Assembly: GCA_027021195.1 (NCBI GenBank)
Contig: JALUUW010000003.1
Span: 4,843 to 68,842 of the forward strand
Direction of reading: 5' to 3'
Source: Candidatus Pacearchaeota archaeon
Lineage (GTDB): Archaea > Nanobdellota > Nanobdellia > Pacearchaeales > GW2011-AR1
DNA: 64,000 nucleotides
This document shows, piece after piece, positions 8,669 through 60,980 of the stretch. Made by a program: the position numbers and the translations under genes. Numbering within the stretch: position 1 is the stretch's first letter; every line of letters begins with the position of its first letter. Below the pieces are notes generated by a model. It did not search any database. It saw only the letters and a list, made by a program, of their open reading frames with translations, and was not told the DNA's origin.

Positions 8669-8689
8669 TTCGGCAACGAGATTATGCCC

Positions 8690-10177: not shown

Positions 10178-10178
10178 T

Positions 10179-10967: not shown

Positions 10968-11025
10968 TTTTATTTAAAGGAAATCTGATTTATAAATGTT
11001 GATAGTTTTTAATGTTTTTAATAAA

Positions 11026-14769: not shown

Positions 14770-14770
14770 T

Positions 14771-15601
14771 TTAAAGCCCAGGAGGTATTATGCAGCTTCT
14801 CACTGCAAACCTGAATTTTTCTTTGCTGTTTTCATGCCTGACAGTATAGATTGTTTCTAAATCGCTTGTCTTGAATCTGTCTATATTGAATTGGGGATTA
14901 ATAATCATAAAGCCAAGATAGTCAAAATTGCAGAACCTTGCCTCTTGACTCAAAATCTCCTGCACAACAGCTGCAATATCATAAAATCTGCTTGGAATAT
15001 TCGCTTCAAGGTTTTCTTTTTTTGAGCTCTCCTCTGTTCTTGTAAGAGTAATCTCGCTGTCTGTTTTAATAATCACTCTCTTTGAGATTAAGTCAACTTC
15101 AAATCCCCTGTAATCCATGCTGACTTCATAATTCTGTTTTTCAAGATTGTTTTTTAATTCATCAAAACATACTTCCATGTCCTCTGCAATATAATTTTTT
15201 ATTTCTTTTTTTAGATGGCTCATCAGCATTGGCTCGTGATTTATGCAGGGAACATAATAATTTTGAGTATAGCATAAATAAGAGATATTTACAGGGTCTT
15301 CACCTTCAAACCTGAAGGTTTTGTAGAGCTCTGGTTCAATATATCCTCCCTGCATGGAGATTGTGCCAATAGCTTCCTTGACCTTGCCTTCAATACACGA
15401 GCTTAAAAAAGCTTCAGGATTTTTTTCAGGGCTCTTTCCTGTTTTTATAGGAGCTTCTCCCCTAAAGAATAAAAACGATGAAATTGCAACAACAACAATC
15501 ATGCCTGCAATTATGAAAATAGTAACCTGCGAGCGTTTTGCCTTTGGAAAAGCCCTTTTATTAAACAGCAGGCCTAAGGCACGAGTTCCTCTTTTTTTCA
15601 T
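14771..15601 (-). CDS. type IV pilin-like protein (class III signal AKRS|QVTIFIIAG)
   Basis: Paralog of the 10179..10967 protein. Stop overlaps the start of the giant gene. Confidence 0.45.
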   Translation of the reverse strand: MKKRGTRALGLLFNKRAFPKAKRSQVTIFIIAGMIVVVAISSFLFFRGEAPIKTGKSPEKNPEAFLSSCIEGKVKEAIGTISMQGGYIEPELYKTFRFEGEDPVNISYLCYTQNYYVPCINHEPMLMSHLKKEIKNYIAEDMEVCFDELKNNLEKQNYEVSMDYRGFEVDLISKRVIIKTDSEITLTRTEESSKKENLEANIPSRFYDIAAVVQEILSQEARFCNFDYLGFMIINPQFNIDRFKTSDLETIYTVRHENSKEKFRFAVRSCIIPPGL

Positions 15602-18202: not shown

Positions 18203-20064
18203 CTCTATCAGACATGGGAAAAAGAGTTCAAGCGTCATGTCTTTTAGTGATATCTCTGCTTTTTGTAATTCTATCAGCATCTTTTATGGCTGCAGAAGGC
18301 AACTCAACAAGTTCTGATGCGGACAAAATCAATAAAGCATATGGGTGTCTTGAAGATAAAGTAAAGGGAAAATGCCCCTCTCTTTCTCTGGAAGAGAGAA
18401 TTTTCTCTCTATTAGCTATAGGAGAGTGTAAAGAAGAGCTTCTTTCTAATTCAAAAGACGAGGAGTGCTGGCCAAAATCTGATTGCAAGGTTAAGCCTAC
18501 AGCTCAGGCTATTCTGGCCCTTAACGGAGCAAACAAAGATACAAGCAGGGCAGAAGAGTGGCTTTTATCTCAGAATTCCACTCCTTCTGAAATTGACTGG
18601 TTTCTGCAGATTGAAAGCGCAGAAGCCACAACATGTAATGTGGATTACTCAGGAAATTCTTATCAAGTATCTATTGACGCTGAAAAAAAACTGAGCTCTA
18701 ATGCAGGAAGTTGCCTCAGTCTTTATGGAGGGGATTACTGGTTTAGAATCTCTCCTTCATGCTATGATAACGAATTCGCAATTTCATGCGACAAGCCTTT
18801 TCTTACAACGCTTTTGTTTAAGAAAAAAACCTCTTCAACAATTCATGTCTCTCAAAAAACAAACTCTGCTGCATCAGAAGGGACAACAATAGAGAAGGTT
18901 GGCTCTCTTTGCTTTTCAAAAGGAGGCTCCTGTGATTATGAGGGGAGCTTATGGGCTGCTTTGGCACTAAACTCACTGGGTAAAGATGTTTCATCATTTA
19001 TGCCTTACCTTATAACAATGGCTGATGAGAATGGCAAGTATCTTCCGGAGTCTTTTTCCTATATTCTGACAGGATATGAGGATTTTCGCAATGAATTGCT
19101 CTTAAAACAAAAAAGCAACAAGTACTGGATGGAATCAGGGGACAAGTTTTATGATACTGCTCTTGCATTGTATCCGTTGCAGTATGAAACTCCTGAAGAA
19201 AAGACAAATGCAGTAAACTGGCTTTTGGAATCCCAGGACAATGAAGGGTGCTGGGAAGGCAACATAAGAAATACTGCTTTTATTCTTTATTCTGTCTGGC
19301 CAAAAGACTTTGCTGTTGATGAGGAGGATGAAAGAGTTGATTGCGAGAGTGCAGGATATTATTGCATGTCTGAGATAAACTGTGAAGGAGAGGTTCTTCC
19401 GGACTATTCCTGCTCAGGAGTTTTTAAGTGCTGCGACACCCCTATCCCTCTGGAAACCTGTGAAGAAATGGGCGGACAGGTCTGCAACTCAAATCAGGCA
19501 TGCGTTGAAGGAAGAGTTGAAGACTCTCCAGACCTTGATTTTGGAGAGGCTTGCTGCCTGGGTGGCTTTTGCGAAGACTCTGCCCCCGTTGAAGAAGAAG
19601 TGTCAGAATGCGAGTCATACGGAGGGGTGTGCAGAACAAACGGGTGTTTTGATGATGAAGAGGAATCTTCCTATTCCTGTGACTTCACTACTGACTCCTG
19701 CTGCACTGTAAAAATTTCTCCTAAAAAAAGCTATTGGTATGTCTGGGTGCTGTTGTTTTTAATAGGGCTTGTAGCTATTGGCATAGTTTTCAGGGATAAA
19801 TTGAGGCCTTATTGGTTTAGGCTGAAGTCAAAGTTTAAAGGCAAAGGCTCTGGAACTGGAAGCCCTGCTCCAAGAAGGCCAGGGTTCCCTCCTCCGTCTT
19901 CAAGAATTCCTTTAAGAAGGAGAATTATGCCAAGAAGAATAATTCCTCCGCAGCAGACTCCTCAAAATATTCCAAGACAATTTCGCCCTTCTGTTCAAAA
20001 GAAACAAAAATCAAGCAAGGAGCTTGATGAAGTTCTTAAAAAGCTCAGGGAAATGGGAAATTGA
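18199..20064 (+). CDS. secreted surface protein with a Cys-rich membrane-proximal module, C-terminal TM anchor and Pro-rich tail
   Basis: Sec-type signal peptide. Cys-rich region (CCLGGFC). TM helix YWYVWVLLFLIGLVAIGIVF. PRRPGFPPPSS tail. Confidence 0.45.
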   Translation: MTLSDMGKRVQASCLLVISLLFVILSASFMAAEGNSTSSDADKINKAYGCLEDKVKGKCPSLSLEERIFSLLAIGECKEELLSNSKDEECWPKSDCKVKPTAQAILALNGANKDTSRAEEWLLSQNSTPSEIDWFLQIESAEATTCNVDYSGNSYQVSIDAEKKLSSNAGSCLSLYGGDYWFRISPSCYDNEFAISCDKPFLTTLLFKKKTSSTIHVSQKTNSAASEGTTIEKVGSLCFSKGGSCDYEGSLWAALALNSLGKDVSSFMPYLITMADENGKYLPESFSYILTGYEDFRNELLLKQKSNKYWMESGDKFYDTALALYPLQYETPEEKTNAVNWLLESQDNEGCWEGNIRNTAFILYSVWPKDFAVDEEDERVDCESAGYYCMSEINCEGEVLPDYSCSGVFKCCDTPIPLETCEEMGGQVCNSNQACVEGRVEDSPDLDFGEACCLGGFCEDSAPVEEEVSECESYGGVCRTNGCFDDEEESSYSCDFTTDSCCTVKISPKKSYWYVWVLLFLIGLVAIGIVFRDKLRPYWFRLKSKFKGKGSGTGSPAPRRPGFPPPSSRIPLRRRIMPRRIIPPQQTPQNIPRQFRPSVQKKQKSSKELDEVLKKLREMGN

Positions 20065-20443: not shown

Positions 20444-21775
20444 ATGAAAAAAAGCATAATTATTCTTGCAGTTTTATTACTGGCAATTCAATTTGCCTCA
20501 GCAGTTGAGTTTGACATGAAATCAGAATTCAGTCAGGGAGAAACAATTATTGCCAGAGTTTCTGGAAATTTCATAGACCCTGTTCTCAGGGAAAACATAC
20601 ATTTTTACAGGGGCAATGTGCCGACTTCAATAATCTATGATGTTGCAAGAATAAGCGGAGAGTTTTACATTTATGCTATTCTCTCTGGAAAAAAAGAGGG
20701 AAATTATTCAATAGTGATAGAGAATGCAAAATACATGAAAGGCTCTCAGGTAGTTGAAGATGCAATAACAAAAAACTTCTCAATAACCAACAGTACAGCA
20801 GATTTTTCAGTAGATCCCGGGTTTATTATAACAAAAGGGAAATTTTTTGTGCAGGTTCAGAATCTGAAGGATTATAAAATAAATGTCAATGCAAAAATAC
20901 TTGCAGATTCAGGAAACAATGGCGGAGGGCTTTTTGATTCTTTGTTTGGAAACAATGGTGAAACAAATGTTTATGAGAAATCAGTTGCTCTGAAATCTGG
21001 CGAGATTAAAAAGATTGATTTTGAATTGGCAAATCTAACTGGCTCAGAACTGACAACTCTTGAAGTAAGCAGTGAAAATCTAAAATACAGCATCCCTCTT
21101 TATATTATAACGAATATGACTGGCGAGGAAGGGGAAAAAGAAAAGGGGATTAAACTTAAATTTGATCCTTCTGAATTAAATGTATCAATCCCTACTTCTT
21201 CAAACACTACAAGAATCATCTATCTGCGAAATTCCGGAGAAGTGGCAATAGAGAATATTTCTTTATCAGTGTCTGATTCCCTGAAGGATTATCTTTCTCT
21301 TTCAGCATATGATATTAATGGGCTTGAGGGGAACTCAAGTGTAAAAATAGAGGTTTATCTTTCTTCAGGAGATATAGAAAGAACTTTTGAAGGGCAGATA
21401 ACTGCAAAAGCTCCTTCAGCAGCTGAAGGAAATGACGTCTATGCTTATGCTGCTGTTTTTTTGAATTTTGTAAAAGGGTTTAAGCCTTTGGACAATGAAA
21501 CAGGAGAGATAAACTATGGAAAAGAAAATACCTGTTCGGAAATGAATGGTGAAATCTGCGCTGAAAATATGGAGTGTTACGGAGACCTAAAATATGCTTT
21601 AGATGGTGTTTGTTGTTTGGGAAGCTGCAGGGAGCTTAAGGAGAGCCCTACAGGAAAAATAATCGGATGGTTAATAATAGTTCTTGTTGCAGTCTTCCTT
21701 ATATGGTTTTTCCGGTTTAAATACAAGGAGGCAAAAAAAGAAGTAAATCTTTTGAAAATTGCCAAGAGAAAGTGA
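20444..21775 (+). CDS. secreted surface protein with a C-terminal Cys motif (CCLGSC) and TM anchor
   Basis: Signal peptide MKKSIIILAVLLLAIQFASA. C-terminal CSEMNGEICAENMECYGD..GVCCLGSC followed by a TM helix. Confidence 0.4.
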   Translation: MKKSIIILAVLLLAIQFASAVEFDMKSEFSQGETIIARVSGNFIDPVLRENIHFYRGNVPTSIIYDVARISGEFYIYAILSGKKEGNYSIVIENAKYMKGSQVVEDAITKNFSITNSTADFSVDPGFIITKGKFFVQVQNLKDYKINVNAKILADSGNNGGGLFDSLFGNNGETNVYEKSVALKSGEIKKIDFELANLTGSELTTLEVSSENLKYSIPLYIITNMTGEEGEKEKGIKLKFDPSELNVSIPTSSNTTRIIYLRNSGEVAIENISLSVSDSLKDYLSLSAYDINGLEGNSSVKIEVYLSSGDIERTFEGQITAKAPSAAEGNDVYAYAAVFLNFVKGFKPLDNETGEINYGKENTCSEMNGEICAENMECYGDLKYALDGVCCLGSCRELKESPTGKIIGWLIIVLVAVFLIWFFRFKYKEAKKEVNLLKIAKRK

Positions 21776-27446: not shown

Positions 27447-28043
27447 CTAAATTCCTCTCCTGTCCAGCTCGTTGTTCACAATGGCAACTGTCTGGCTGGC
27501 AAAATACATCTTAGGGCCAATGGAGATTTTCTTTGCAATTTTTTTCAGCCTTTTAAGCTCTTTGATAGGAAGCCCTTCGTGGTCCCCTAAAACAAAAACA
27601 CTTTCTTCAGGAATTTTTGCCTTTCTTATGTCTTCTCCCTTTCTGTCAAGAATGAATATTTCATTTCCATCCTCATAGAGCCCCTCAACAACTTTCAGAA
27701 AGCTCTTTTTCTCTATAAAGCATCCGGAAAGAGCTTCTGTTTTTTTGCCTTCCCTGTACTTGTAAAGGATTTTTTTAATTAAATTCCCTATGTCTTTCTT
27801 GCTTATGTCAAGCTCAGGAGTTACCTGCATTTCAATGTGTTTTGGAGCATCAGGAGGGCCGTAAAATACCAAGTGCATCTTAACATCCTTTCTGAATCCA
27901 TGGGAAAGAAAAAAAGCAGAGATGATTGTGTGTATTGCAATGTCCATTCTACCTGCTTTCATCAGGTTTCCTTTTCCTTTTTCTCCTGAAAGGGCCTTTC
28001 CAGATGTCGCTGCTTTGCTTGAAAAATATATGAAGTGCCTCAT
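27447..28043 (-). CDS. trmY: SPOUT methyltransferase, probable tRNA(Psi54-N1) methyltransferase TrmY
   Basis: AFFLSHGFRKDV...LVFYGPPDAP...VLGDHEGL...ISIGP..YFASQ pattern resembles the DUF358/TrmY family. Confidence 0.5.
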   Translation of the reverse strand: MRHFIYFSSKAATSGKALSGEKGKGNLMKAGRMDIAIHTIISAFFLSHGFRKDVKMHLVFYGPPDAPKHIEMQVTPELDISKKDIGNLIKKILYKYREGKKTEALSGCFIEKKSFLKVVEGLYEDGNEIFILDRKGEDIRKAKIPEESVFVLGDHEGLPIKELKRLKKIAKKISIGPKMYFASQTVAIVNNELDRRGI

Positions 28044-29145: not shown

Positions 29146-29724
29146 ATGCTTGATAGGGATATTTCCCAAGGCCAAGGTGTTTTTGAGGTCAGAGGGGATT
29201 ACAGCATAAAATTCCCAATGGGGAAAGAGGAGAGGGAGATTATATCAGGAGATTATGCAGTATATTTCTATAATCAGATTTTAAATGCAGAAACTCCTTC
29301 TGAATGTTCTTTTTTTAGAATAGTGTTTGACGGGCTTAGATTTGAGGAACAACAAAGCCTGATACGCATTCATGAATGGTGTATGGGTGAAAAAGCAAAT
29401 CACTATATAGGGTATGGAAATGCTGCTCTTGATTTGTATGAAAGAATGGGAGTTGATGTAGGGAACTACATTGAGATAATAAAAAGGCTTGAGGATAAAA
29501 AATATGGTCATTGCAATGAGTGCGGATACCTGTTTGATGAAGAGTTTAAAAAAGAGAACAGGATAGGCTTTATTACGAAAAATCCGGGCAGAATATTTAA
29601 GCCATTTAACATATCTTCCAGCTATTGCGACGACTGCCTTGAAGAGGTTAGAGATAAAAATAAGAGGCTGAAGATAGCTGAAAGATTAAGCCATGATTTT
29701 AGGATTTTTACCACCCTTTTATGA
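29146..29724 (+). CDS. hypothetical protein with C-terminal Zn-ribbon cysteines
   Basis: ORF plus CNECG...CDDC. Confidence 0.3.
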   Translation: MLDRDISQGQGVFEVRGDYSIKFPMGKEEREIISGDYAVYFYNQILNAETPSECSFFRIVFDGLRFEEQQSLIRIHEWCMGEKANHYIGYGNAALDLYERMGVDVGNYIEIIKRLEDKKYGHCNECGYLFDEEFKKENRIGFITKNPGRIFKPFNISSSYCDDCLEEVRDKNKRLKIAERLSHDFRIFTTLL

Positions 29725-37841: not shown

Positions 37842-38930
37842 ATGACACAATTAACTAAAGCAGAACTTGAAGAAATTTTGGAAGAATTAGGAAAACACCG
37901 AGGAAGGGCAACAGAGCTTATCACAGTTTACATACCTTCAGGCCAGAATATTTATACTGTTTCAGACCAGCTTGAAGCAGAAAAATCAACTGCAAAAAAC
38001 ATAAAATCCACTTCAACACGAAAAAATGTAATTAATGCTTTGGAAAAGATAACAAGATACCTCAAAACCATGAAAAAGACTCCTGAGAACGGCCTTGCTG
38101 TTTTTTGCGGCAATGTAAGCAAGGTTGAAGGGCAGGAGGATCTGAAATTATGGGGTATTGAGCCTCCAATGCCCTTGAAAGTAAGAATGTACAGATGCGA
38201 CAAGGAATTTGTTCTTGAGCCTTTAAGAGAGCAGCTTGAAGTCTCAGAGGTTTTTGGCCTGCTTGTTATGGACAGAAAAGAGGCAACTATAGGCATGCTT
38301 GAAGGAAAAAGAATAGAGGTTTTGCAGCACATGACTTCAGGAATTCCAAGCAAAGTAAGGGCAGGAGGCCAGTCAAGCCAGAGGTTCCACAGAATTACTG
38401 AAGGATTAACAAAAGAATTTTACAAGAGAATTGCTGATGAGATGAAAAAGGTTTTTTTCGATATGCCGAAACTTAAGGGAATTCTTGTAGGAGGCCCTAT
38501 TCCTACAAAAGACGAGTTTCTTGACAATAAATATCTGGCCACAAAGCTTCAGGAAAAAGTGATAGGAAGAGTGGATATTGGAGATGCTGATGAATCAGGG
38601 CTAAAAGAGATTGTTGCAAAATCTCATGATATTTTGGAGAATCAGGAGATAATTCATGAAAAAAAGGTTCTTGAAAAGTTTTTTGAGACTCTTGGAGAAA
38701 AGCCTGATTTTGCTCTTTATAAAGAAGAAGATGTCAGAAAGGCTCTTGAATACGGAGCTGTAGATGTATTAATATTGTCAAAAGACCTTGATAAAAAACT
38801 CTCAAAAGAGCTGAAAAAAATGGCAGAGAGTATTTCATCAGAGGTTGAGGTTGTCTCCACAGAAACAGAAGAAGGAAAGCAGTTCAATAATCTCTCTGGA
38901 ATAGGGGCTTTGCTGAGGTTTAAGGTTTAA
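37842..38930 (+). CDS. prf1: peptide chain release factor aRF1
   Basis: NIKS motif (AKNIKSTSTRKNV). GGQ motif (RAGGQSSQRF). C-terminal LLRFKV. Confidence 0.85.
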   Translation: MTQLTKAELEEILEELGKHRGRATELITVYIPSGQNIYTVSDQLEAEKSTAKNIKSTSTRKNVINALEKITRYLKTMKKTPENGLAVFCGNVSKVEGQEDLKLWGIEPPMPLKVRMYRCDKEFVLEPLREQLEVSEVFGLLVMDRKEATIGMLEGKRIEVLQHMTSGIPSKVRAGGQSSQRFHRITEGLTKEFYKRIADEMKKVFFDMPKLKGILVGGPIPTKDEFLDNKYLATKLQEKVIGRVDIGDADESGLKEIVAKSHDILENQEIIHEKKVLEKFFETLGEKPDFALYKEEDVRKALEYGAVDVLILSKDLDKKLSKELKKMAESISSEVEVVSTETEEGKQFNNLSGIGALLRFKV

Positions 38931-52475: not shown

Positions 52476-52643
52476 GATATTAAATTAAAATTTTGATTAA
52501 TAAAGATTATTAATTTATTTTTTGGCTATTTTATAGAAGGTATTATTTTTTAAATGTTTTGGCAGATATATCCTTCCCAAAAGATTTAAAAGGACTATAC
52601 TGTCTGGATATATACATTAAACTATACATATCCGAGTATCAAA

Positions 52644-52910
52644 ATGAAAGACAATTTTGATATCTTTTTCAGGAGAAAGCCAGCTCTGATGCTGGTATCT
52701 CTTAAAAAGAATACAAGGATGAGGTATGGTAGTGTTTTGGCTAAGGAAGTTGACTGCACCTACAGCCATGCAGTGAAGATTTTGCAGACACTTGAAGACC
52801 TTAAGTTAGTTGTTTTTGAAAAAAAGGGGCGGATAAAAATTATACAGCTAACGAAGAAGGGAAGAGAAGTTGCAGATGCAATTGAAAACATTCAAAAGCT
52901 GATTAAATGA
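52644..52910 (+). CDS. small winged-helix transcriptional regulator
   Basis: 88 aa. HTH-like YSHAVKILQTLEDLKLV. Confidence 0.45.
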   Translation: MKDNFDIFFRRKPALMLVSLKKNTRMRYGSVLAKEVDCTYSHAVKILQTLEDLKLVVFEKKGRIKIIQLTKKGREVADAIENIQKLIK

Positions 52911-53052
52911 AAGCTTTTGGCTACCACGCCCCTGAAAGAGCCTTATGGGCAGAAGACAATAGCAGGCAGTATTTAGTTTAGGATTAGCCTGGATGCTTTA
53001 AGATATTTTTTATCCTATGCAATGCTTTTCTGTGTTTGGGATTTTATAAGCA

Positions 53053-53127
53053 TGGCCCTGGAGGGATTTGAACCCCCGACACCCAGATTAAGAGTCTGGT
53101 GCTCTAACCAGGCTGAGCTACAGAGCC
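53053..53127 (-). tRNA. tRNA-Lys (anticodon CTT), no encoded CCA
   Basis: Hand-folded. Acceptor GGCTCTG/CAGGGCC with one G-U pair. D-arm TAGCTCAGCCTGGTTAGAGCA. Anticodon stem-loop CCAGA-CTCTTAA-TCTGG. T-arm GGGGGTTCAAATCCCTC. Discriminator A. Confidence 0.85.
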
Positions 53128-53169
53128 ATAATTCAATATCAGAGAAGAAGTTTAAAAATCTTTACTAGC

Positions 53170-53475
53170 TTACCTGTATTCTCTCCATGTATGCTCGCAT
53201 TTTACGCATTTGAAGAATTTTGTTTCCGCCTCGTCTCCTGAACGCGTCTGAACTGTCCAGAAGTATGCCTTTCCATTACCGCATTTTTTGCATATTTCAT
53301 CAATAATTGGAAAAACCTCTGTTCCTTTTTTAAGGACAGCCACGCCTTTTTTTTCCTCTATCTTTTCAGATGTCTTTATTTTTACTTTCTCTTTTGCAGA
53401 ATAACTGCATCTTGGACATCCGTCTTTCTTTCTTTTTTGCACAAGAACAGCACCGCATTTTGGACAAAATTCCAT
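53170..53475 (-). CDS. tfs: transcription factor S / RNAP subunit M family (TFIIS-type C-terminal zinc ribbon)
   Basis: N-terminal CPKCG...CPRC ribbon. C-terminal CKKCGNGKAYFWTVQTRSGDEAETKFFKCVKCEHTWR. Confidence 0.8.
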   Translation of the reverse strand: MEFCPKCGAVLVQKRKKDGCPRCSYSAKEKVKIKTSEKIEEKKGVAVLKKGTEVFPIIDEICKKCGNGKAYFWTVQTRSGDEAETKFFKCVKCEHTWREYR

Positions 53476-53550: not shown

Positions 53551-54189
53551 TCAATTTTCTTTGCAGAATCCCCTCTCGCTCGGAGGCTTTCCAATCTCAA
53601 AGAACACCAGCTTCCCCCATCCTATATAAGGAGCAATCCTGAATGCAGCCTTTCCGACGAGCTGCTCTTCTTTTATGCTTTTTTCAAAAGTTAGCTGCCC
53701 TCTGTTGTTGTCTCCCATTGTTGAGAAAATTTTTTCCCCTTTTTCATTTCTGATGCTGATTATTCGATGTATAACAGGATTTCTCTGTCCTGCACTGAAT
53801 ATGACTACATCTCCGATTTTCAGCCTGTCAGGATCTGCTTTTGTTATAAACAAGATATCTCCTTTGTTAAATCCGTTTTTAAATATAAACTCCTCAAACT
53901 CCTCTTTTTCAATATTAAATTTGGAATACTTTGCTTCATGCCTCTCCCACCATTCATCATAATTGGAGAGGAGATTTCCCTGATGATACATGCTGCATGA
54001 TTCAACAATTGCCAGAGGAAGCGCAGTTCCTGTTGCCAGGCTCAGAAGAGGAAAAAAGATGAACTTTATGAATATAAAAAGAAATGCAATTGAAAAAATC
54101 CACCCTTTAAAGCTGTCATCTTTCCACAGCAGAAACCAGAATTTTTTCCACAATTTAAAAGCACTCTTTTTTACGGCATTTTGGCCCAT
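53551..54189 (-). CDS. signal peptidase I (Sec11/S26B-like)
   Basis: N-terminal TM. SCSM (catalytic Ser box-like). VIHRII (His box). GDNN box. Confidence 0.6.
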   Translation of the reverse strand: MGQNAVKKSAFKLWKKFWFLLWKDDSFKGWIFSIAFLFIFIKFIFFPLLSLATGTALPLAIVESCSMYHQGNLLSNYDEWWERHEAKYSKFNIEKEEFEEFIFKNGFNKGDILFITKADPDRLKIGDVVIFSAGQRNPVIHRIISIRNEKGEKIFSTMGDNNRGQLTFEKSIKEEQLVGKAAFRIAPYIGWGKLVFFEIGKPPSERGFCKEN

Positions 54190-54341
54190 GTAAACAAGTA
54201 ATTGCAGAGAGTTTATAAGTGTTTCATGTTTTTACGCATTATGCCAATTTATTTTTTCATGAATTTAATCATTTTTTATTTTTTTATCTGCTCTGGCTTT
54301 TGCCTCTCCGGACAGGGCAGAAAAACCGCAAAGTTTAAATA

Positions 54342-54432
54342 GTATACATGTATGTGTATATACATAAAGGTATATACTTTTTGTATAACCTTCTTTCACC
54401 CCTCTTTAAGACCGTGTCATTCCGGCACGGTT
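54342..54432 (+). promoter_or_regulatory. cluster of palindromic operator-like motifs and a hairpin upstream of the Cdc48/Hsp20 operon
   Basis: Perfect 10-bp palindrome ATACATGTAT at 54344-54353. 8-bp palindrome GTATATAC at 54356-63 and again at 54370-77. Related GTATAAC at 54383-89, giving ~14 bp periodicity. Hairpin ACCGTG/CACGGT at 54411-16 and 54426-31. Confidence 0.3.
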
Positions 54433-54451
54433 CATTTTAAAAGTCAAAAAA

Positions 54452-54829
54452 ATGAAAATGGCAGACATATTTGAGAACACAATACTTTGCAAAAAATGTG
54501 ATGCAGAAATGGAGAAAGTAAAACTAATGAAAAACGGATTTCTAATGCGGGCAGTGGCTTGTCCGGAATGCAATGAAAAGATTATGCATCCGGTTGATGA
54601 GCAAGAGTACCATAGGTTTATAAATTTGAAAAATAAAGAGTTTAGAGTTAAGATGAGGCTTGTTGGAAACAGTTATGCAGTATCAATTCCTAAAGAAATT
54701 GTTTCATTCATGGAAGAGCAGAAAAAAATTATGGATGATATGGTGAGGTTATGCTTTGAAGATGTTGGAAGGCTGTCTCTCAGTTTCGGAGATTTTGAAG
54801 AATTAAAAATTAACAGGAGAAAAAAATGA
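54452..54829 (+). CDS. Zn-ribbon plus AbrB/SpoVT-like swapped-hairpin domain protein (possible regulator)
   Basis: CKKCD...CPECN ribbon. VGNSYAVSIPKEIV resembles the AbrB/MazE-type fold. Stop overlaps the next start. Confidence 0.35.
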   Translation: MKMADIFENTILCKKCDAEMEKVKLMKNGFLMRAVACPECNEKIMHPVDEQEYHRFINLKNKEFRVKMRLVGNSYAVSIPKEIVSFMEEQKKIMDDMVRLCFEDVGRLSLSFGDFEELKINRRKK

Positions 54830-55107
54830 AAAACATCTGGCTTGTTGTAGATAATACCGGAAAGAAACTGGCTTACTCGCCTATTAGGCTGGCTCCTAAA
54901 TTGAGGATTGCCAGTAATCCTGAAACTAATCAGGAGTATGATGATGCAAAAGATGGTGAAGTTGGAGAATTTGAGAGATGTGTTTCATGCTGGAATCCTA
55001 CAGATATTAAAAAAAACACTCCTATAGATAAAAGGCCTTTTTATGTTGAAGGGGTGGGGCAATTAGACAGAGAATGCTTTATGGAGGTTTATGGAATTAG
55101 AAAATGA
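54826..55107 (+). CDS. hypothetical protein (93 aa), translationally coupled to Cdc48
   Basis: ORF with 4-nt overlaps on both sides. Confidence 0.3.
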   Translation: MKNIWLVVDNTGKKLAYSPIRLAPKLRIASNPETNQEYDDAKDGEVGEFERCVSCWNPTDIKKNTPIDKRPFYVEGVGQLDRECFMEVYGIRK

Positions 55108-57398
55108 CAAAAGAAAAGCAAATTCAGCTGAAAGTGGTTGAGGCGCTGCAGGATGATGCCTACAAAGGGATAGCAAGGATAGACAGCGAGGTAATGAGAG
55201 AGCTTGACATAAGGAGAGGGGATGTTATTAAGATAAAAGGAAATAAAGAAACAGTTGCAATTGCCGACAGGGCATACCCTGCAGACATGGGAGAGAATAT
55301 TATAAGGATAGACGGGATTATGAGGAGAAATGCAAAGACAGGAATCGGAGATATTGTAACAATATCAAAGGCAGAAGTAAGAGAGGCAAAAAAGATAATG
55401 ATTGCACCTGCACAAAAAGGGATTCTGGTTCAGGGAGATTCTGAAAGTTTGAGAGGGGGCCTTTTAGGCAGGGCTGTAATGAAAGGAGACATTGTTGTTT
55501 TGGGAGGAGTCCAGAGAAGAAGAGATCTTCTCTCAGATGATTTTGGCGAGATTAATGACATGATTGGAGACATGCTTGGAAATATGGGATTTGGAAATCT
55601 TGGAGGAGGTGTTACGCAAATAAGGTTCCTTGTTGTCAACACAACCCCAAATCAGCCAGTTATTGTTACTGAAAATACTGAAGTGGCTCTTAGCCCTAAA
55701 GCAGTAGAGGTAAGCGACGAGAAAATCCCTGAGATTACTTATGAAGATATTGGAGGATTGAGTGAGGAGATAAAGAAAATAAGGGAAATGGTTGAGATTC
55801 CCTTGAAGCACCCTGAGATTTTCAATAAATTGGGGGTAGAGCCTCCTAAAGGAGTGCTGCTTCACGGGCCTCCAGGAACAGGAAAAACCCTTTTGGCAAA
55901 GGCAGTTGCCAATGAATCAGATGCAAATTTTATTCTTCTTAACGGGCCTGAGATTATGAGTAAGTTTTACGGAGAAAGCGAAAAGAAAATAAGAGATATT
56001 TTTGAGGAAGCAGAAAAAACAGCTCCGACAATCATTTTTATTGATGAGATTGATGCCATTGCTCCAAAAAGAGAAGAGGTTATGGGAGAGGTGGAGAGAA
56101 GAGTTGTAAGCCAGATTTTAACAATGATGGACGGACTTAAGTCAAGAGGAAAGGTGATAGTCATTGGCGCTACTAACAGGATTAATGCAATTGACCCTGC
56201 TTTGAGGCGCCCAGGTCGTTTTGACAGGGAAGTTGAGATTAATGTTCCGAGCAAAAAAGGAAGAAATTCTATCCTAAAGATTCATACAAGAGGGATGCCG
56301 TTGGCAAAAAATGTTAATCTTGGGGAAATAGCTTCTCTGACTCATGGTTTTGTTGGTGCTGATTTGGAGTCTTTAAGCAAGGAAGCTGCTATGAATGTTT
56401 TAAGAAAACATCTCCACAAAATAAAGCTTGATGATGAAGAGATTCCTCCGGAGATTCTGGAAAAAATGATTGTCAGGCAGGAAGATTTCATGGAGGCATT
56501 AAAAGTTGTGAGGCCTTCAGCCATGAGAGAGGTGTTGGTTGAAACTCCTAATGTAGGCTGGGATGCTGTCGGAGGCCTGGATAAAATCAAACAGGAGTTA
56601 AAGGAGGCTGTTGAATGGCCTTTAAAATATCCTGGAAGCTTTAAGAGAATGGGTATCAGGCCTTCAAGAGGGATTTTGCTTTACGGTCCTCCAGGAACAG
56701 GAAAAACTCTTTTGGCAAAGGCCGTTGCCAAAGAATCAGAGGCAAATTTCATTCAGGTTAAAGGGCCTTCACTATTGAGCATGTGGGTCGGAAAAAGCGA
56801 AGAGGGAGTTAGAAAGATATTTGAAAGGGCAAGGCAGGTAGCTCCTTGCGTTGTGTTTTTTGACGAGATTGATGCTCTTGCAGGAAAAAGAGGCCAGGAA
56901 ACAGGAACAAAGGTTACTGAAAGGGTTTTAAACCAGCTTCTTGCTGAAATGGATGGGTTGGAAGATCTGAATGATGTTCTTGTTATTGCTGCAACAAACA
57001 GGCCTGATATGCTTGACCCTGCGCTTTTAAGGCCAGGAAGATTTGACAAAATCCTTCTTGTAAATGCTCCTGAAGAAGAAGGAAGGTATAAAATACTCCA
57101 GATACACACAAAAAATATGCCTCTGGCAAAAGGGGTTAAGATAAGAGATCTTGCAAAGACAACTGTGGGATATACAGGGGCTGATCTTGAGGCTCTGACA
57201 AGGGAGGCTGCATTGCTTTCATTAAGAGAATCTATTGACTCAAAGGAAGTCAAGAAAAAGCATTTTGACGAGGCATTGAAGAAAGTGAGACCCAGTGTAA
57301 GCAAGCCGACAATTGAAGTTTACAAGAAGATTGAAGATAATCTCCTTAAATCCGCAAAGTCTGCAGTTGCTTCTGTTGGAAGCAGCTATCTCGGATAA
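55104..57398 (+). CDS. cdc48: Cdc48/VCP-like AAA+ ATPase (N-domain plus two AAA modules)
   Basis: Two GPPGTGKT Walker A motifs, DEID Walker B and the second region of homology. CDC48-N-like start ([25 protein letters not shown]). Confidence 0.9.
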
Positions 57399-57424
57399 TT
57401 AAATTAAGATGTTGAGAGATAAAA

Positions 57425-57808
57425 ATGAGCTTTTTCGATGAGGATCCGTTTGAGACAATTGTAAGGGAGTTTTTCGGCCATAGCCCTTCAAGAGAGAGGT
57501 ATAAGGAAGAGATTATTCATGGCGAAGAGGAAGACAGAGTTATTGACTTCGTAGAGCATAAAAATAAGACTTATCTTATTTTTGAACTTCCTGGATTTGA
57601 TGAAAAGGATATTTTTGTAAGTGTTAAGGACAGGAAATTGGAGATAAAAGTGAAAAAGAGAAATAAAGAAGGAATTCAGGCTTACCTGGTTCCGAGGCTG
57701 AGTCAGGAGGAGATTATCAGGAAACCTCTTCCAAAGTTTGTTGATCCAAAGACGTTTTCATATACTGTAAAAAATGGAGTTTTGGAGGTTGCTTTTAATA
57801 AAAAATGA
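57425..57808 (+). CDS. hsp20: Hsp20/alpha-crystallin small heat-shock protein
   Basis: Alpha-crystallin domain (DFVEHKNKTYLIFELPGFDEKDIFVSVKDRKLEIKVKK). Confidence 0.8.
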   Translation: MSFFDEDPFETIVREFFGHSPSRERYKEEIIHGEEEDRVIDFVEHKNKTYLIFELPGFDEKDIFVSVKDRKLEIKVKKRNKEGIQAYLVPRLSQEEIIRKPLPKFVDPKTFSYTVKNGVLEVAFNKK

Positions 57809-59988
57809 CCAGAGAAAAAGAACCAAAAAAAATTGAACTTGAAGTTGCAGAGTCACTGCAGGAGGACATTGATAAAGGAATTGCAAGAATACCTTCTGAT
57901 TTTATGGATTCTTTAGGCATCTCTTCAGGAGATATTGTGGAGGTCAGGGGAAAAAGCGCCGCTGTTATCAAGGCAATGCGTTCCTTAAATGACAGTAGCC
58001 AGGATATAATAAGGCTTGATGGGTCTACAAGGTCAAATATCGGCGCTTCTATCGGGGATAAGATATCCTTGAGCCCAGTAAAGATTAGCGAGGCTAAATC
58101 CCTGACACTCTCTCCTCTTCAGGAAGTGAGGTTTAGCGACAATCCGACAGAATATTTCCATACAAAACTGCTCCATAAGCCTCTGAGTGCCGGGCAGAAG
58201 ACAATTATTGATGTTTTTGGAACAAGGCTTGAATATATGGTGTCAAAAACAAGTCCAAAAGGATATGTTATTGTTACCCCTGCAACAAAGATTATTGTTT
58301 CTGATGTTCCTTATTCAGGAGAGTTTAAGGCTACAGGAGTTTCATACGAGGATATTGGAGGATTGAAAAGCGAAGTTGAGCTTATCAGAGAGATGGTTGA
58401 ACTTCCAATGAAGCACCCAGAGGTTTTTCAGAAGCTTGGAGTGGGAGCTCCAAAAGGAGTGTTGCTTACAGGCCCTCCTGGAACAGGGAAAACCCTCTTG
58501 GCAAAGGCGGTTGCCAATGAAACAGACTCTATGTTTTATTCCATTGCAGGCCCTGAGATAATGTCGAAATTTTATGGGGAATCGGAGAAGCACATCCGAG
58601 ACATTTTTGAAAAAGCAGAGAAAACAGCTCCTTCAATCATTTTTATTGACGAGATTGACAGCATAGCTCCAAAAAGAAGCGAAGGGACAGATCAGACTGA
58701 AAAGAGAATTGTTGCACAGCTTCTTACATTAATGGACGGCCTTAAGTCAAGAGGGCAGGTTGTTGTCATGGCTGCTACAAACAGGCCCGATGATATTGAT
58801 CCTGCTTTGAGGCGCCCAGGCCGTTTTGACAGGGAACTAAGAATAAATCCTCCTGATGAAAAAGGAAGAAAGGAGATTCTTCAGATACACACAAGAGGAA
58901 TGCCTCTTGACAAGGATGTGGATTTTAATGAGCTTTCAAATAAGACTATTGGATATACTGGAGCGGACATAGAGGTTTTATGCAAGGAGGCTGCACTGAA
59001 ATCAATAAAGCCGTATTTCTCAGAGCTGAAGAATATTCAGGAGAAGGTTCCAACACAAATTCTGGACAAGATTAAAGTATCCAGAGAGCATTTTATTGAA
59101 GCTATAAAACACGTAGAGCCGTCAGCCATGAGAGAGGTTTTAATTAACAAGCCGAATGTCAGATGGGAAGATGTCGGAGGAATGGATAAAATAAAAGAAA
59201 AGCTAAGAGAGCTTGTAGAGCTTCCATTGATAAGGCCTGACTTGTATGCTAAAGCAGGAATAAAGCCTTCCAAAGGAGTGTTGCTTACAGGCCCTCCTGG
59301 AACAGGGAAAACCCTTCTGGCAAAGGCAGTTGCGACAGAAGCAAATGCAAATTTCATTTCAGTTAAGGGGCCAGAGCTTGTAAGCAAGTGGGTTGGTGAA
59401 AGTGAGAAGCATATTCGTGAGATATTCAAAAAAGCCCGCCAGGTTTCTCCGTCAATAATTTTTTTTGATGAGTTTGACAGCATCTCAAAATTAAGGGGAA
59501 GCTCAATGAGTGATTCAACAGAGAGAATTGTTAACCAGCTTTTAACAGAAATGGATGGGATAGAGGAGCTTGAGAATGTAATTGTTATTGCTGCAACAAA
59601 CAGGAAAGACCTGATAGACCCTGCGCTTTTAAGGCCCGGAAGGATTGATTCAATAATAGAGCTGGAAATCCCTGATAAAAAAACAAGAGAGGCGATTTTT
59701 AAAGTTCATACAAAAAATATGCCTTTGGAAAAATCATTGAAGCTTGACGAGTATGTGGAAAAAACAGAATCATGGACTGGAGCAGAAATTGAAGCTCTCT
59801 GCAGAAATGCAGGTGTGAATGCAATCAAAAGAATGTATAAAGAGAGAAAAAAATCTTCAGGAGAGCTGATAATCAGAAAAGAGGATTTTGACAAGTCCCT
59901 GAAAGAGACATCAGAGCAGATTAATAAGCCAATTAAGTCTGAGAAAAAAGAGCTAAAGAGCAAAGGAAAGAAAGAGTCAAAAAAATAA
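57805..59988 (+). CDS. cdc48: Cdc48/VCP-like AAA+ ATPase, second paralog
   Basis: Same architecture. About 70-75% identical to the first copy across the D1 domain by eye. Confidence 0.9.
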   Translation: MTREKEPKKIELEVAESLQEDIDKGIARIPSDFMDSLGISSGDIVEVRGKSAAVIKAMRSLNDSSQDIIRLDGSTRSNIGASIGDKISLSPVKISEAKSLTLSPLQEVRFSDNPTEYFHTKLLHKPLSAGQKTIIDVFGTRLEYMVSKTSPKGYVIVTPATKIIVSDVPYSGEFKATGVSYEDIGGLKSEVELIREMVELPMKHPEVFQKLGVGAPKGVLLTGPPGTGKTLLAKAVANETDSMFYSIAGPEIMSKFYGESEKHIRDIFEKAEKTAPSIIFIDEIDSIAPKRSEGTDQTEKRIVAQLLTLMDGLKSRGQVVVMAATNRPDDIDPALRRPGRFDRELRINPPDEKGRKEILQIHTRGMPLDKDVDFNELSNKTIGYTGADIEVLCKEAALKSIKPYFSELKNIQEKVPTQILDKIKVSREHFIEAIKHVEPSAMREVLINKPNVRWEDVGGMDKIKEKLRELVELPLIRPDLYAKAGIKPSKGVLLTGPPGTGKTLLAKAVATEANANFISVKGPELVSKWVGESEKHIREIFKKARQVSPSIIFFDEFDSISKLRGSSMSDSTERIVNQLLTEMDGIEELENVIVIAATNRKDLIDPALLRPGRIDSIIELEIPDKKTREAIFKVHTKNMPLEKSLKLDEYVEKTESWTGAEIEALCRNAGVNAIKRMYKERKKSSGELIIRKEDFDKSLKETSEQINKPIKSEKKELKSKGKKESKK

Positions 59989-60083: not shown

Positions 60084-60980
60084 TTATCCCCTTGTCACAA
60101 TGATTTTTCCTTCTTCATCTATTAAAATAGTGTCTTCTGCCTGGCTGACCTTTCCTCCTGAACTCTCTACAAGCTGTGGAAAGTGGTGAAGATTTCCGTT
60201 TTGCTCCAGCTGCCTTAATGCAATCAGAGCCCCTGTTCCTGCTTTTTTTACAATCCATCTTGAGCAAAAAGGCATTGTCCTGTATTCTTCTTCAATTAGC
60301 TTCAGGACCTTTCTTGCAATAGGGCTTCTTATGTTTTTATTATTAATCAGAATGTAAATTCCTGAAGGATTTCCGTCATGCACTTTTCCGCTTCCAGGAG
60401 TTGCAAATGGCTCTATTGCATAAACGCCTTTTTGCAGAAGAATGTTTTTTTTATTGTCAATATTCGGGATTGTGAGCCCGGCATGAATTCTGTGCTGTTT
60501 TATTTCATGTCCTGATAAGTTCATTATTGGAGAAAATCCCAGAGATTCTATTGTTTCCTGAATTTTTTTTCCTATCTCTCTCACACTGATGCCTTCTTTG
60601 GCTGTTTTAACTGCGCTCTCAAGAGCTTTTTCAGAGGCCTCTATGAGCTTTTTGTTTTCCTCGCTTTCCTTTCCTCTTTCAAGGTCAAGGGAAAAAGCAG
60701 TATCAGTTATCCATCCGCCTATGTGGACTCCTATATCCACTTTCAATAATCCTCTTGCAAGAGTTTTTTCATCATGCGAAGGAGTGTAGTGCGCAGCAAT
60801 CTCATTAATGCTTAAACTTACTGGAAAAGCAGGCTCTCCTCCCAGCTCTCTTATTTTTTCTTCAATCTTCTCAGCTATTTCCAGAAGAGGAACACCTCTT
60901 TTAATAATTGTTTTTGCATACTCTTTGGCTTGGCAGGCAATTTTTCCAGCTTTGATGATTTTATCCTTATCCATGTCCAA
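60084..60980 (-). CDS. map: methionine aminopeptidase, type 2
   Basis: VDIGVHIGGWITDTAFS, GHEIKQHRIHAG and IEPFAT motifs with the characteristic insertion. Confidence 0.85.
   Translation of the reverse strand: MDMDKDKIIKAGKIACQAKEYAKTIIKRGVPLLEIAEKIEEKIRELGGEPAFPVSLSINEIAAHYTPSHDEKTLARGLLKVDIGVHIGGWITDTAFSLDLERGKESEENKKLIEASEKALESAVKTAKEGISVREIGKKIQETIESLGFSPIMNLSGHEIKQHRIHAGLTIPNIDNKKNILLQKGVYAIEPFATPGSGKVHDGNPSGIYILINNKNIRSPIARKVLKLIEEEYRTMPFCSRWIVKKAGTGALIALRQLEQNGNLHHFPQLVESSGGKVSQAEDTILIDEEGKIIVTRG

Follow-up and report, generated by a model that had tools for sequence, protein, structure and literature searches.

A candidate autoregulated Cdc48 operon of Nanoarchaeota and Pacearchaeota with phased GTATAC-core sites in its promoter

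A plus-strand operon in the 64-kb window (the whole stretch of DNA analyzed) is probably an autoregulated Cdc48 (protein quality control) operon of a kind typical of DPANN Nanoarchaeota/Pacearchaeota. Its first gene encodes a small zinc-ribbon and SpoVT/AbrB-like protein, ZnAbrB, and its promoter carries a row of GTATAC-core sites. Across two deep Nanoarchaeota/Pacearchaeota clades, 122 distinct promoters share this layout of a TATA box followed by two to four phased GTATAC-core sites spaced 13–14 bp apart, each time ahead of the 125-aa gene and then the Cdc48-A ortholog; its recurrence across hundreds of related species makes a dedicated switch for proteostasis likely, one that has not been described before. 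The tiny-celled DPANN archaea are poor in transcription factors and still beyond genetic manipulation, and we know of no comparable heat-shock regulator described in them. In the present case, candidate operator, regulator, and target are defined to the nucleotide and are common to at least 347 species-level genomes, so that one recombinant 14-kDa protein and 70 bp of DNA would suffice to test the hypothesis. If correct, it would provide a first well-defined transcription factor-operator pair in Nanoarchaeota, a handle on the control of a probably central unfoldase in Nanoarchaeota/DPANN organisms, and a case of the regulator–Cdc48–sHsp circuit arising a second time on an unrelated DNA-binding fold, the only known archaeal heat-shock regulators, Phr and HSR1, both being euryarchaeal winged-helix proteins (PMC9133787).

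The operon comprises five genes (Table 1), joined by 4-nt ATGA overlaps at three junctions and separated by a 26-nt gap at the fourth; the ORF coordinates bear out the chain of overlapping or closely spaced genes described in an earlier sequence-only reading. Profile searches also agreed with its domain calls, returning a weak MazE/AbrB match together with a CxxC..CxxC zinc ribbon in the first protein, HSP20 in the fourth, and Cdc48 in the two large ones. All five genes exist, but the conserved unit is shorter than the five-gene operon proposed and consists of the promoter, the small regulator, and Cdc48-A; sequence comparison identifies two lineage-specific inserts, the 93-aa ORF and the Hsp20-Cdc48-B module. 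The 93-aa ORF matched nothing in Pfam, NCBIfam, PADLOC, or PHROG, and a word-indexed search returned only the ORF itself; its C-terminal half recurs in six related loci at 37–52% identity, placed either 5′ of the promoter or in the interval from ZnAbrB to Cdc48-A. Hsp20 matched PF00011 with 33.8 bits (cut-off 20.8, residues 42–126) and the NCBIfam archaeal Hsp20 below threshold. Among relatives it was found only in loci L014, L047, L059, L068, L070, and L076, each time directly 5′ of a Cdc48-B ortholog, and Hsp20 and Cdc48-B were present together in only ∼7 of 85 related loci. Among the ORFs examined in the window, none was a thermosome, prefoldin, or proteasome gene.

Table 1. Positions of the genes, promoter elements, and leader elements of the Cdc48 operon, numbered from the first nucleotide of the window.
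Feature	Position	Strand	Remarks
Core promoter	54326..54341	+	archaeal; BRE-like purine-rich stretch and TATA box TTTAAATA (54334–54341); conserved in relatives
Site 0	54342..54347	.	GTATAC, adjoining TATA box; missed by the sequence-only reading; GT(A/G)TA(T/C) there in nearly all clade relatives
Site 1	54355..54364	.	TGTATATACA, perfect 10-bp palindrome, core GTATATAC at 54356–54363; ∼−9 to +1 of inferred start
Site 2	54369..54377	.	GGTATATAC, palindromic core GTATATAC at 54370–54377; ∼+6 to +14 of inferred start
Site 3	54383..54389	.	GTATAAC, degenerate; ∼+20 to +26 of inferred start
Leader motif	54388..54401	+	ACCTTCTTTCACCC, family consensus ACCTCTTTTCAACC; ≤3 mismatches in 52 of 78 related promoters
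5′-UTR stem-loop	54410..54432	+	GACCGUGUC / GGCACGGUU, loop AUUCC; covariation
ZnAbrB	54452..54829	+	125 aa; zinc ribbon and SpoVT/AbrB-like; candidate autorepressor
93-aa ORF	54826..55107	+	small Cys motif ECVxC...YVEGxGQL..ECF..VYG; lineage-specific insert
Cdc48-A	55104..57398	+	764 aa; CDC48_N, CDC48_2, 2xAAA, lids; conserved payload
Hsp20	57425..57808	+	127 aa; Hsp20/alpha-crystallin small heat-shock protein; PF00011
Cdc48-B	57805..59988	+	727 aa; CDC48_N, CDC48_2, 2xAAA; old paralog; ATGA overlap with Hsp20

Both large genes have the archaeal Cdc48/VAT architecture (CDC48_N and CDC48_2 followed by two AAA modules with lids). They had been taken for recent paralogs; however, the two copies share only 50% identity, and each has separate orthologs, at 75–84% identity for Cdc48-A in the close clade (59–68% in the divergent clade) and 61–77% for Cdc48-B in seven loci, a pattern that marks them as ancient paralogs. 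The (S/T)Y(L/F)G tail at the C-terminus of Cdc48-A hardly varies among orthologs. In the window it ends S-Y-L-G, with Tyr at −3 rather than −2, and does not fit the canonical HbYX motif ([LVIMGAPFYW][FY]x at the extreme C-terminus; PMC3493965), although a few orthologs ending S-Y-F-G or S-Y-Y-G do. The C-terminus of Cdc48-B is Lys-rich and lacks the Tyr motif.

Cdc48-A comes after ZnAbrB in 81 of 85 loci, as it does in the divergent loci; ZnAbrB occupies one syntenic position, with no signs of mobility, in the species-level genomes counted above. Start/stop overlaps between the two genes are frequent, or the gap is very short; intervening sequence includes the 93-aa ORF in the window, ∼600 nt in L006, L017, and L024, and, in L003, a 277-aa Exo_endo_phos gene. 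The sites, the small gene, and Cdc48-A remain together across both clades, with the small protein down to 40–50% identity. In one clade, a very conserved wHTH protein lies nearby and has its own promoter motif with TATATAC; its gene is unlinked in the divergent clade, where the sites, ZnAbrB, and Cdc48-A are linked.

The core promoter, (a/c)cNaaa(t/c)aTTTA(A/T)ATA, lies at the same position in the 122 related promoters. In leaderless relatives, the first T of the TATA box is 30–39 nt from the ATG, and in six other genes of the window the distance is exactly 29 nt, from which we infer a start site at ∼54363–54365. The four GTATAC-core sites, spaced 14, 14, and 13 bp from start to start, extend from the TATA box to ∼+25 of that start. 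Three of them, sites 1 to 3, had been noted as GTATA(T/A)AC repeats with ∼14-bp spacing and are indeed present. The upstream palindrome reported with them, ATACATGTAT, likewise exists (54344–54353), but it is not conserved in relatives, which retain only GT(A/G)TA(T/C) after the TATA box; the site 0 equivalent in L025 is a complete GTGTATAC. In most promoters of the window’s clade, the site 1 equivalent, GTGTATAC(AC), is centered 26 nt from the TATA start, and the center of the site 2 equivalent lies ∼39–40 nt from it in related promoters, whereas site 3 is limited to one sub-lineage (the window, L006, L007, L048, L054, L068, L071, and L077). Across related promoters, the intersite spacing has a mode of 13 bp, with centers at fixed distances from the TATA box.

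A shuffle test and the near-absence of the layout from ∼1.4 Mb of flanking DNA speak against AT-rich background. Within the window, GTATAWAC had five strand-matches against 0.93 expected, with five or more in one of 100 shuffles, and all matches to GTRTAYAC fell inside the Cdc48 operon promoter; no second copy of the motif was seen in the window, and no second target promoter was seen. In 0.9 Mb of related loci, GTRTAYAC occurred ∼150 times against 8–13 expected under Markov models, and in just two places outside the ZnAbrB-Cdc48-A promoter. Of the divergent clade’s 70 distinct upstream regions, 69 contained at least one GTATAC/GTATATAC core, with 119 cores in 5.8 kb of upstream regions versus 30 in 405 kb elsewhere. 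Site pairs spaced 9–17 bp were found outside this promoter once in ∼1.4 Mb. The suggestion that the repeats resemble operators is strengthened by the retention of their sequence, number, spacing, and position across the 122 promoters, and they behave as candidate operator sites.

The first small gene had been suggested as the regulator, and it appears to be the best candidate, encoding a SpoVT/AbrB-type protein that always accompanies the sites, in loci that were gathered via the ZnAbrB protein itself, so that co-occurrence of site and gene is expected by construction. Translation probably begins at 54458, giving 123 aa. The match to PF04014 (MazE_antitoxin) was below the cut-off (19.8 versus 24.7 bits; E 7.7e-4, residues 69–84), and TIGR02609 (NCBIfam) was matched at E 3.6e-5; among 27 divergent family members, 14 matched PF04014 at E up to 0.01, the best at 7.1e-9. 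An hhalign comparison with Escherichia coli MazE (E 0.001, residues 70–104) spanned the entire b1-b2-a-b3 region. The AF2 monomer model has the topology b-b-a-b-b (pLDDT 83), a fold that requires a dimer, and its structural neighbors are the MqsA N-domain/ZifS and MazE/VapB/C56. No HTH family was matched in Pfam or NCBIfam, the predicted fold being a zinc ribbon plus an AbrB-like domain, and no description of an MqsA-like zinc domain combined with an AbrB-like domain was found in the literature searched. In strand 1, K67-x-R69 is invariant inside each Cdc48-linked clade, A1 and A4, while in the wider family K67 alone is nearly invariant. In a remote subfamily, the gene overlaps a 102-aa ORF in a two-gene cassette that does not adjoin Cdc48 and carries an inverted repeat, ATATCT-N4-AGATAT, directly after its own TATA box, which suggests that the entire ZnAbrB family is self-regulating.

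Under the favored model of an autoregulated operon, ZnAbrB would dimerize through its AbrB-like domain, bind the row of sites cooperatively, and block recruitment of TFB/RNA polymerase at the start site, repressing its own operon; a proteostasis challenge (heat, oxidation, or client overload) would lift repression, with the zinc ribbon as the likely sensor or partner-binding module. The sHsp-Cdc48-B module would contribute a holdase and a second unfoldase without a Tyr tail, and its acquisition, with that of the small Cys protein, would tie the operon to stress protection. Heat induction of the Cdc48 operon is conjecture. A more far-reaching version, which we regard as unlikely, casts ZnAbrB as a domesticated antitoxin-type repressor with Cdc48 in place of the toxin, forming a chaperone-titration feedback loop on an AAA+ unfoldase and the main stress switch of the genome-reduced DPANN archaea. 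The MqsA-like zinc ribbon would then dock on free Cdc48-A, which would act as co-repressor on the GTATAC array, and misfolded clients occupying Cdc48 would leave the repressor without its partner and derepress the operon. Such a loop would resemble HspR-DnaK or the conditional cooperativity of toxin-antitoxin systems.

Several known systems share parts of this arrangement. In HspR-dnaK and HrcA-CIRCE, the repressor gene lies inside the chaperone operon that it controls through inverted-repeat promoter operators, and the chaperone feeds back on repressor activity; HspR and HrcA are unrelated to ZnAbrB, and feedback by Cdc48 is hypothetical here. The C-terminal domain of ZnAbrB resembles the DNA-binding domains of MazE/VapB and its zinc domain is MqsA-like, type II antitoxins autorepress via promoter palindromes, and the remote ZnAbrB relatives sit in a toxin-antitoxin-like pair; unlike MqsA and the MazE/VapB antitoxins, however, ZnAbrB has no toxin partner here but Cdc48-A as its constant neighbor, and its chromosomal synteny is fixed in hundreds of species. 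The comparison with a heat-shock operon made in the sequence-only reading seems apt by analogy, in that Phr and HSR1 repress hsp20 and cdc48 via palindromes at the start site and HSR1 is in the same operon (PMC9133787, PMC5852551, PMC10746257). As with Phr of Pyrococcus furiosus and HSR1 of Archaeoglobus fulgidus (arCOG01684), autoregulating repressors controlling hsp20 and the Cdc48/VAT AAA+ ATPase, the sites overlap the inferred start just 3′ of the TATA box and the regulator is linked to cdc48/hsp20. The resemblance is functional only: Phr and HSR1 are winged-helix proteins, whereas ZnAbrB has no HTH, and they use a single palindrome (Phr TTTA..TGGTAA..AAAA, HSR1 CTAAC-N5-GTTAG; PMC9133787) rather than two to four phased GTATAC-core sites and a structured 5′ leader. 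As proposed for ZnAbrB, MraZ of the dcw operon is an AbrB-superfamily protein encoded first in a very conserved operon, its own, and it represses by binding three to four repeated promoter boxes that include the start site (PMC12957436). A basic K-x-R in the first strand of MraZ contacts DNA, comparable to the conserved K67-x-R69. MraZ (UPF0040) is bacterial, with cargo other than Cdc48, binds direct TGGGN-type repeats with a ∼10-bp period rather than cores at 13–14 bp, and has two AbrB-like halves per chain, forming octamers or dodecamers, whereas ZnAbrB has one half (residues 66–112) plus a zinc ribbon and so must dimerize.

ZnAbrB could instead be a cofactor or substrate adaptor, its swapped-hairpin barrel and zinc ribbon docking on Cdc48 or its clients, with a different, unlinked transcription factor on the GTATAC sites, a possible but rather improbable alternative. 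It keeps 70–80% identity along its entire length, similar to Cdc48-A and also to TFS, a level of conservation uncommon among transcription factors that may point to a partner protein, and the overlaps or very short gaps with Cdc48-A suggest translational coupling. There are also faint zf_UBZ matches in ZnAbrB, and AbrB barrels are related in evolution to the double-psi barrel of the Cdc48 N-domain, according to Coles et al. (2005) as cited in PMC12957436. The wHTH protein with the TATATAC motif would be available as the separate factor, but its gene, unlike the sites, ZnAbrB, and Cdc48-A, does not stay linked in the divergent clade. Moreover, SpoVT/AbrB superfamily members of known function bind DNA, the remote relatives away from Cdc48 have their own promoter-proximal inverted repeat, and unrelated genes often intervene between ZnAbrB and Cdc48-A.

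The repeats might also be core-promoter or RNA features (alternative TATA boxes, initiators, or 5′-end folding sequences), given that GTATATAC contains TATATA and that sites 2 and 3 with their flanks AAGGT/ACCTT can pair into a predicted 10-bp hairpin, the first of the leader, at its 5′ end. This is improbable, however: many sites are GTGTACAC or GTGTATACAC, without TATA character, sites 0 and 1 lie upstream of the inferred start and so would not be transcribed, leaderless variants keep the sites though the leader is lost, and the fixed 13–14-bp phasing of two to four sites is typical of cooperative protein binding. Least probable, and by our estimate very remote, is a toxin-antitoxin-like addiction module beside Cdc48, with ZnAbrB in the role of antitoxin and a toxin encoded by the 93-aa ORF or another small one. 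The combination of an MqsA-like zinc domain with a MazE/VapB-like domain is antitoxin-like, and so is the cassette of the remote relatives with its overlapping ORF, but Cdc48-A is the constant neighbor and the small partner ORFs differ between species or are missing, the single syntenic position shows no mobility, and neither PADLOC nor toxin families gave a match. No known toxin-family gene was found adjoining ZnAbrB, the neighbors being the 93-aa ORF, which has no family, and Cdc48-A.

In the window’s clade, the leader motif and stem-loop may add a post-transcriptional layer to the autoregulated operon. The genome’s mRNAs are mostly leaderless, and the operon leader of ∼90 nt in this clade is unusually long. 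The conserved leader motif is a pyrimidine motif; it always lies 5′ of the stem-loop, and both are missing together from leaderless variants. Predicted folding of the leader gave z = −5.1. In Rfam, the best match to 54250–54520 reached 26.7 bits where the gathering score is 50, leaving the stem-loop without a family, and the only gathering-level match in the window was one tRNA. The hairpin that had been proposed ahead of the first ATG is real, with 54410–54418 pairing with 54424–54432: RNAalifold across 31 species recovered eight pairs, seven of them with compensatory changes, and 98.4% of alignment cells were paired versus 85.8% in shuffles, with slid controls falling to 24–46%. Double changes numbered 47 against 12 expected, a count attained in 0 of 500 shuffles, and 23 G-U cells in the stem point to sense-strand RNA. 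This covarying 5′-UTR stem-loop represents a new candidate cis-regulatory RNA in a mostly leaderless lineage.

Judged from sequence comparison, the conserved unit at this locus is an operator-array promoter followed by the genes for ZnAbrB, a small protein with a zinc ribbon and a SpoVT/AbrB-like domain, and Cdc48-A. The sequence-only reading had proposed a five-gene operon; the five plus-strand ORFs are present and chained, in order, by an ATGA overlap, a second ATGA overlap, a 26-nt gap and a third ATGA overlap, but what is conserved is the smaller unit. The operon's neighbors are a signal peptidase gene, oriented divergently, and a methionine aminopeptidase (MetAP) gene, oriented convergently, and a long syntenic block is conserved, specifically TFS, signal peptidase, regulator, Cdc48-A, MetAP and PUA/RsmB methyltransferases. 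The true start of ZnAbrB is probably 54458, because homologs begin at MADIF. One related locus (L003 7985-8110, identical to L026) carries a duplication of the regulator gene's initial ∼25 nt together with the ribosome-proximal leader (aaataaaATGACAACAGATATTTTTGACAATGG); the extra copy lies about 90 nt 5′ of the real start and gives an annotated product of 149 aa.

Features of the Cdc48 operon, its promoter and other genes of the window
Feature	Position	Strand	Remarks
TATA box	54334-54341		TTTAAATA
Site 0	54342-54347		GTATAC
Site 1	54355-54364		TGTATATACA
Site 2	54369-54377		GGTATATAC
Site 3	54383-54389		GTATAAC
ZnAbrB, 125 aa	54452-54829	+	sub-threshold MazE/AbrB and zinc-ribbon Pfam matches
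93-aa ORF	54826-55107	+	no Pfam match
Cdc48-A, 764 aa	55104-57398	+	Pfam CDC48_N, CDC48_2 and two AAA modules
Hsp20, 127 aa	57425-57808	+	Pfam HSP20
Cdc48-B, 727 aa	57805-59988	+	Pfam CDC48_N, CDC48_2 and two AAA modules
tRNA-Lys(CTT)	53052-53128	-	just upstream of operon
TFS/RPB9-type zinc-ribbon transcription factor	53170-53475	-	just upstream of operon
Archaeal signal peptidase I	53551-54189	-	just upstream of operon
MetAP gene	60084-60980		convergent flank
Genes with TATA-like box 29 nt 5′ of ATG (examples)	10179-10967, 18214-20064, 27447-28043, 29146-29724, 37842-38930, 60084-60974

The candidate operator sites share a GTATAC-type core. In the 64-kb window, GTATAWAC gave five strand-matches against 0.93 expected, every GTRTAYAC match fell in the Cdc48 operon promoter, and no second operator was found. 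A relative of the small protein is encoded by 347 species, and a first set of 80 loci from GTDB species genomes, plus three from long contigs, was collected through it; over about 0.9 Mb, these loci had ∼150 occurrences of GTRTAYAC, where Markov models expect 8–13, with only two places outside the Cdc48 operon promoter. A second set of 80 metagenome loci represents a divergent clade (small protein 39–50% and Cdc48-A 54–68% identical to those of the window) with the layout TTTATATA, then two or three GTATAC(AC) sites, then ATG; a core site was present in 69 of 70 distinct upstream regions, with 119 cores in 5.8 kb of upstream regions versus 30 in 405 kb elsewhere. Because the loci were collected through the small protein, co-occurrence of sites and gene is partly by construction. 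The search space for further targets was about 10–14 kb around each locus plus the window. Over all sequence of both sets, a single pair of cores 9–17 bp apart lay outside the Cdc48 operon promoter. Spacing between core sites peaked at 13 bp, and the offset of site centres from the TATA box was fixed: about 12, 26 and 39–40 for the window's clade, and about 18 and 32 for the divergent one. Since many sites read GTGTACAC or GTGTATACAC, the conserved feature is the GT..AC palindrome and not TATA-likeness. The upstream sites first noticed as operator-like are real, their sequence, spacing and TATA-box distance being kept within each clade. The window's ten largest ORFs (Cdc48 genes and a 1247-aa ORF set aside) included no thermosome or proteasome gene, and viral contigs scanned with the operator pattern gave 120 background matches, none near ZnAbrB or Cdc48. 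A bacterial sigma-70/terminator scan, irrelevant in an archaeon, found fewer promoter-like sites than in shuffles.

In several genes of the window, the TATA-like box begins exactly 29 nt before the ATG, a signature of leaderless mRNAs; the genome thus seems to use mostly leaderless mRNAs, with the Cdc48 operon and its leader of roughly 90 nt as an exception. Where relatives of the small gene are leaderless, the last site is immediately followed by the ATG, 30–39 nt past the TATA start. From these two distances, we infer that transcription of the Cdc48 operon starts at about 54363-54365, which would put the start after sites 0 and 1, themselves 3′ of the TATA box, and before sites 2 and 3, at ∼+6 to +26. 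Archaeal repressors such as Phr block polymerase recruitment from a start-site position like that of these sites (PMC9133787).

The simplest mechanism would be autorepression, in which ZnAbrB binds the operator array and represses its own operon. This is favored because, to our knowledge, every characterized relative of its C-terminal domain binds DNA, and because sites, gene and target stay together across deep divergence. K67, R69, G72, N73, S74, P80 and E82 are invariant in each of the two Cdc48-linked clades, and K67, G72, S74 and P80 are nearly so across the wider family; the K-x-R on strand 1 may parallel K13-x-R15, which contacts DNA in MraZ, a bacterial AbrB-superfamily protein (PMC12957436). 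The main rival holds that ZnAbrB is a partner of Cdc48 and that the sites are read by another factor, consistent with the unusually even conservation along ZnAbrB and its tight coupling to Cdc48-A. The two readings are compatible if ZnAbrB is a repressor that senses free Cdc48 through its zinc domain.

Only as part of that rival was wHTH88 kept; it was rejected as the true regulator, its own promoter motif being different and its gene unlinked in the divergent clade. This 88-aa winged-helix protein (52644-52910, plus strand) is 83–97% identical across 45 related loci, better conserved than Cdc48. Its promoter (52550-52643) carries TTTAAAAG, about 10 nt, then (C)TGAATATATACATT, often with a second GAATATATA copy upstream of the BRE, and has only the TATATAC core in common with the Cdc48 operator.

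Phr and HSR1, winged-helix heat-shock repressors, control hsp20 and cdc48 in Euryarchaeota (PMC5852551, PMC10746257), and at the level of function an autorepressed Cdc48 operon would work like these systems. The fold of ZnAbrB and the GTATAC-type operator differ from theirs, however, so that the ZnAbrB system is an analog and not a member; the suggested resemblance to an archaeal heat-shock operator holds for the arrangement but not for fold or operator. No earlier description of the module was found in the searchable literature.

By sequence clustering, the ZnAbrB family is narrow and very conserved, with 2393 homolog clusters at 70–80% identity and, in a set of 1.84 billion proteins, a collapse to 135 representatives at 50% identity; the labels of homologs and loci, Pacearchaeota, Woesearchaeota and Nanoarchaeota (NCBI kingdom Nanobdellati), put the organism within DPANN. 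The canonical SpoVT/AbrB pattern (VKVGKLGNSLVLRIPKEI..KGD) is seen in divergent members, of which 14 of 27 match PF04014 (best E 7e-9). AF2 with a diverse alignment predicted a three-stranded zinc ribbon, a helix and a b-b-a-b-b domain (pLDDT 83), superseding a model from a shallow close-homolog alignment in which the C-terminal domain was poor (pLDDT 68). All nearest matches of the model among solved structures were weak, a profile search of PDB sequences returned only noise (thermosome, trigger factor, E about 0.1), and PHROGs gave only two weak matches, to families of unknown function. Relatives in a remote subfamily, about 28% identical, do not adjoin Cdc48. There the 109-aa protein (L086 7640-8330, also L087) is encoded behind a 102-aa ORF with which its gene overlaps and which belongs to no known family; a TATA box and ATATCT-N4-AGATAT-N7-AGATATC lie upstream, and the two genes look like an undescribed self-regulated toxin-antitoxin-like pair.

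The Cdc48 copies had been taken for recent paralogs, which is contradicted by their 50% identity and by closer orthologs of each type elsewhere; on sequence identity they are old paralogs. Across 85 related loci, the small-protein gene was always followed by one of A type (75–84% identity to A, 46–51% to B); a B-type gene (61–77% identity to Cdc48-B) occurred in seven, directly 3′ of an Hsp20 gene in six. Pairing of small heat-shock proteins with Cdc48 is an old archaeal theme, and the Hsp20–Cdc48-B pair in the operon of the window's lineage is the sole direct hint at a stress role. The C-terminus of Cdc48-A orthologs is (S/T)-Y-(L/F)-G almost without exception; B orthologs have Lys-rich tails. 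The A tail resembles the HbYX proteasome-docking motif and may serve in docking, although the Tyr of the window's Cdc48-A stands one position further from the C-terminus than the published pattern, [LVIMGAPFYW][FY]x> (PMC3493965), allows. In nine loci (L066, L091, L109, L111, L128, L129, L165-L167), Cdc48-A tblastn matches were split by 1–2.5 kb of unmatched sequence or the gene started far downstream, suggesting inteins or other insertions in several species.

In the window's clade, roughly two promoters in three have a long leader that combines the motif ACCTCTTTTCAACC with a stem-loop and, shortly 5′ of the first ATG, TTATAWTCA; in loci with an additional small ORF inserted ahead of the regulator gene, it is this ORF that the leader precedes. 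The hairpin reported just before the first ATG proved to be a real, conserved and covarying stem-loop (54410-54432), with compensatory changes in seven of eight consensus pairs, 98.4% paired cells (85.8% in shuffles, 24–46% in slid controls) and 47 double changes versus 12 expected, a count reached in 0 of 500 shuffles; the 23 G-U cells suggest folding of the sense RNA. Neither it nor the leader matched an Rfam family at gathering or E-value thresholds, and roles in stability, translation control or protein binding are all possible. In the window, an 8-bp A/U helix also forms over the AUG (54431-54438 with 54449-54456); an RNA thermometer was rejected as a conserved feature (AUG pairing 0.47 versus 0.42 shuffled, Wilcoxon p = 0.29, 36 species). 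Sites 2 and 3 with their flanks AAGGT/ACCTT (54367-54392) form a predicted 10-bp hairpin at the extreme 5′ end of the leader, its 3′ arm overlapping the conserved leader motif. By eye, AGGT before site 2 could pair with the leader-motif ACCT in some lineages (GAGGT/ACCTC elsewhere), and ACCCC-type leaders offer it no partner; the hairpin may be either an RNA helix or merely operator symmetry.

The 93-aa ORF, which matched only itself in a word-indexed search, contains a small Cys-motif domain of unassigned family (ECVxC..YYVEGAGQL..CY..IYG) that recurs in L015, L039, L043, L056, L066 and L074, either upstream of the promoter or between regulator and Cdc48-A depending on species, and appears loosely attached to the operon. 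PADLOC gave zero matches. Elsewhere in the window, the large ORFs at 8690-10177, 16589-18202, 18214-20064 and 20444-21775 had no Pfam match at E up to 1e-5, and G+C rises to 0.39–0.43 around 8–14 kb (8000-14800), versus about 0.36 elsewhere, a stretch that spans the 1247-aa ORF (11026-14769).
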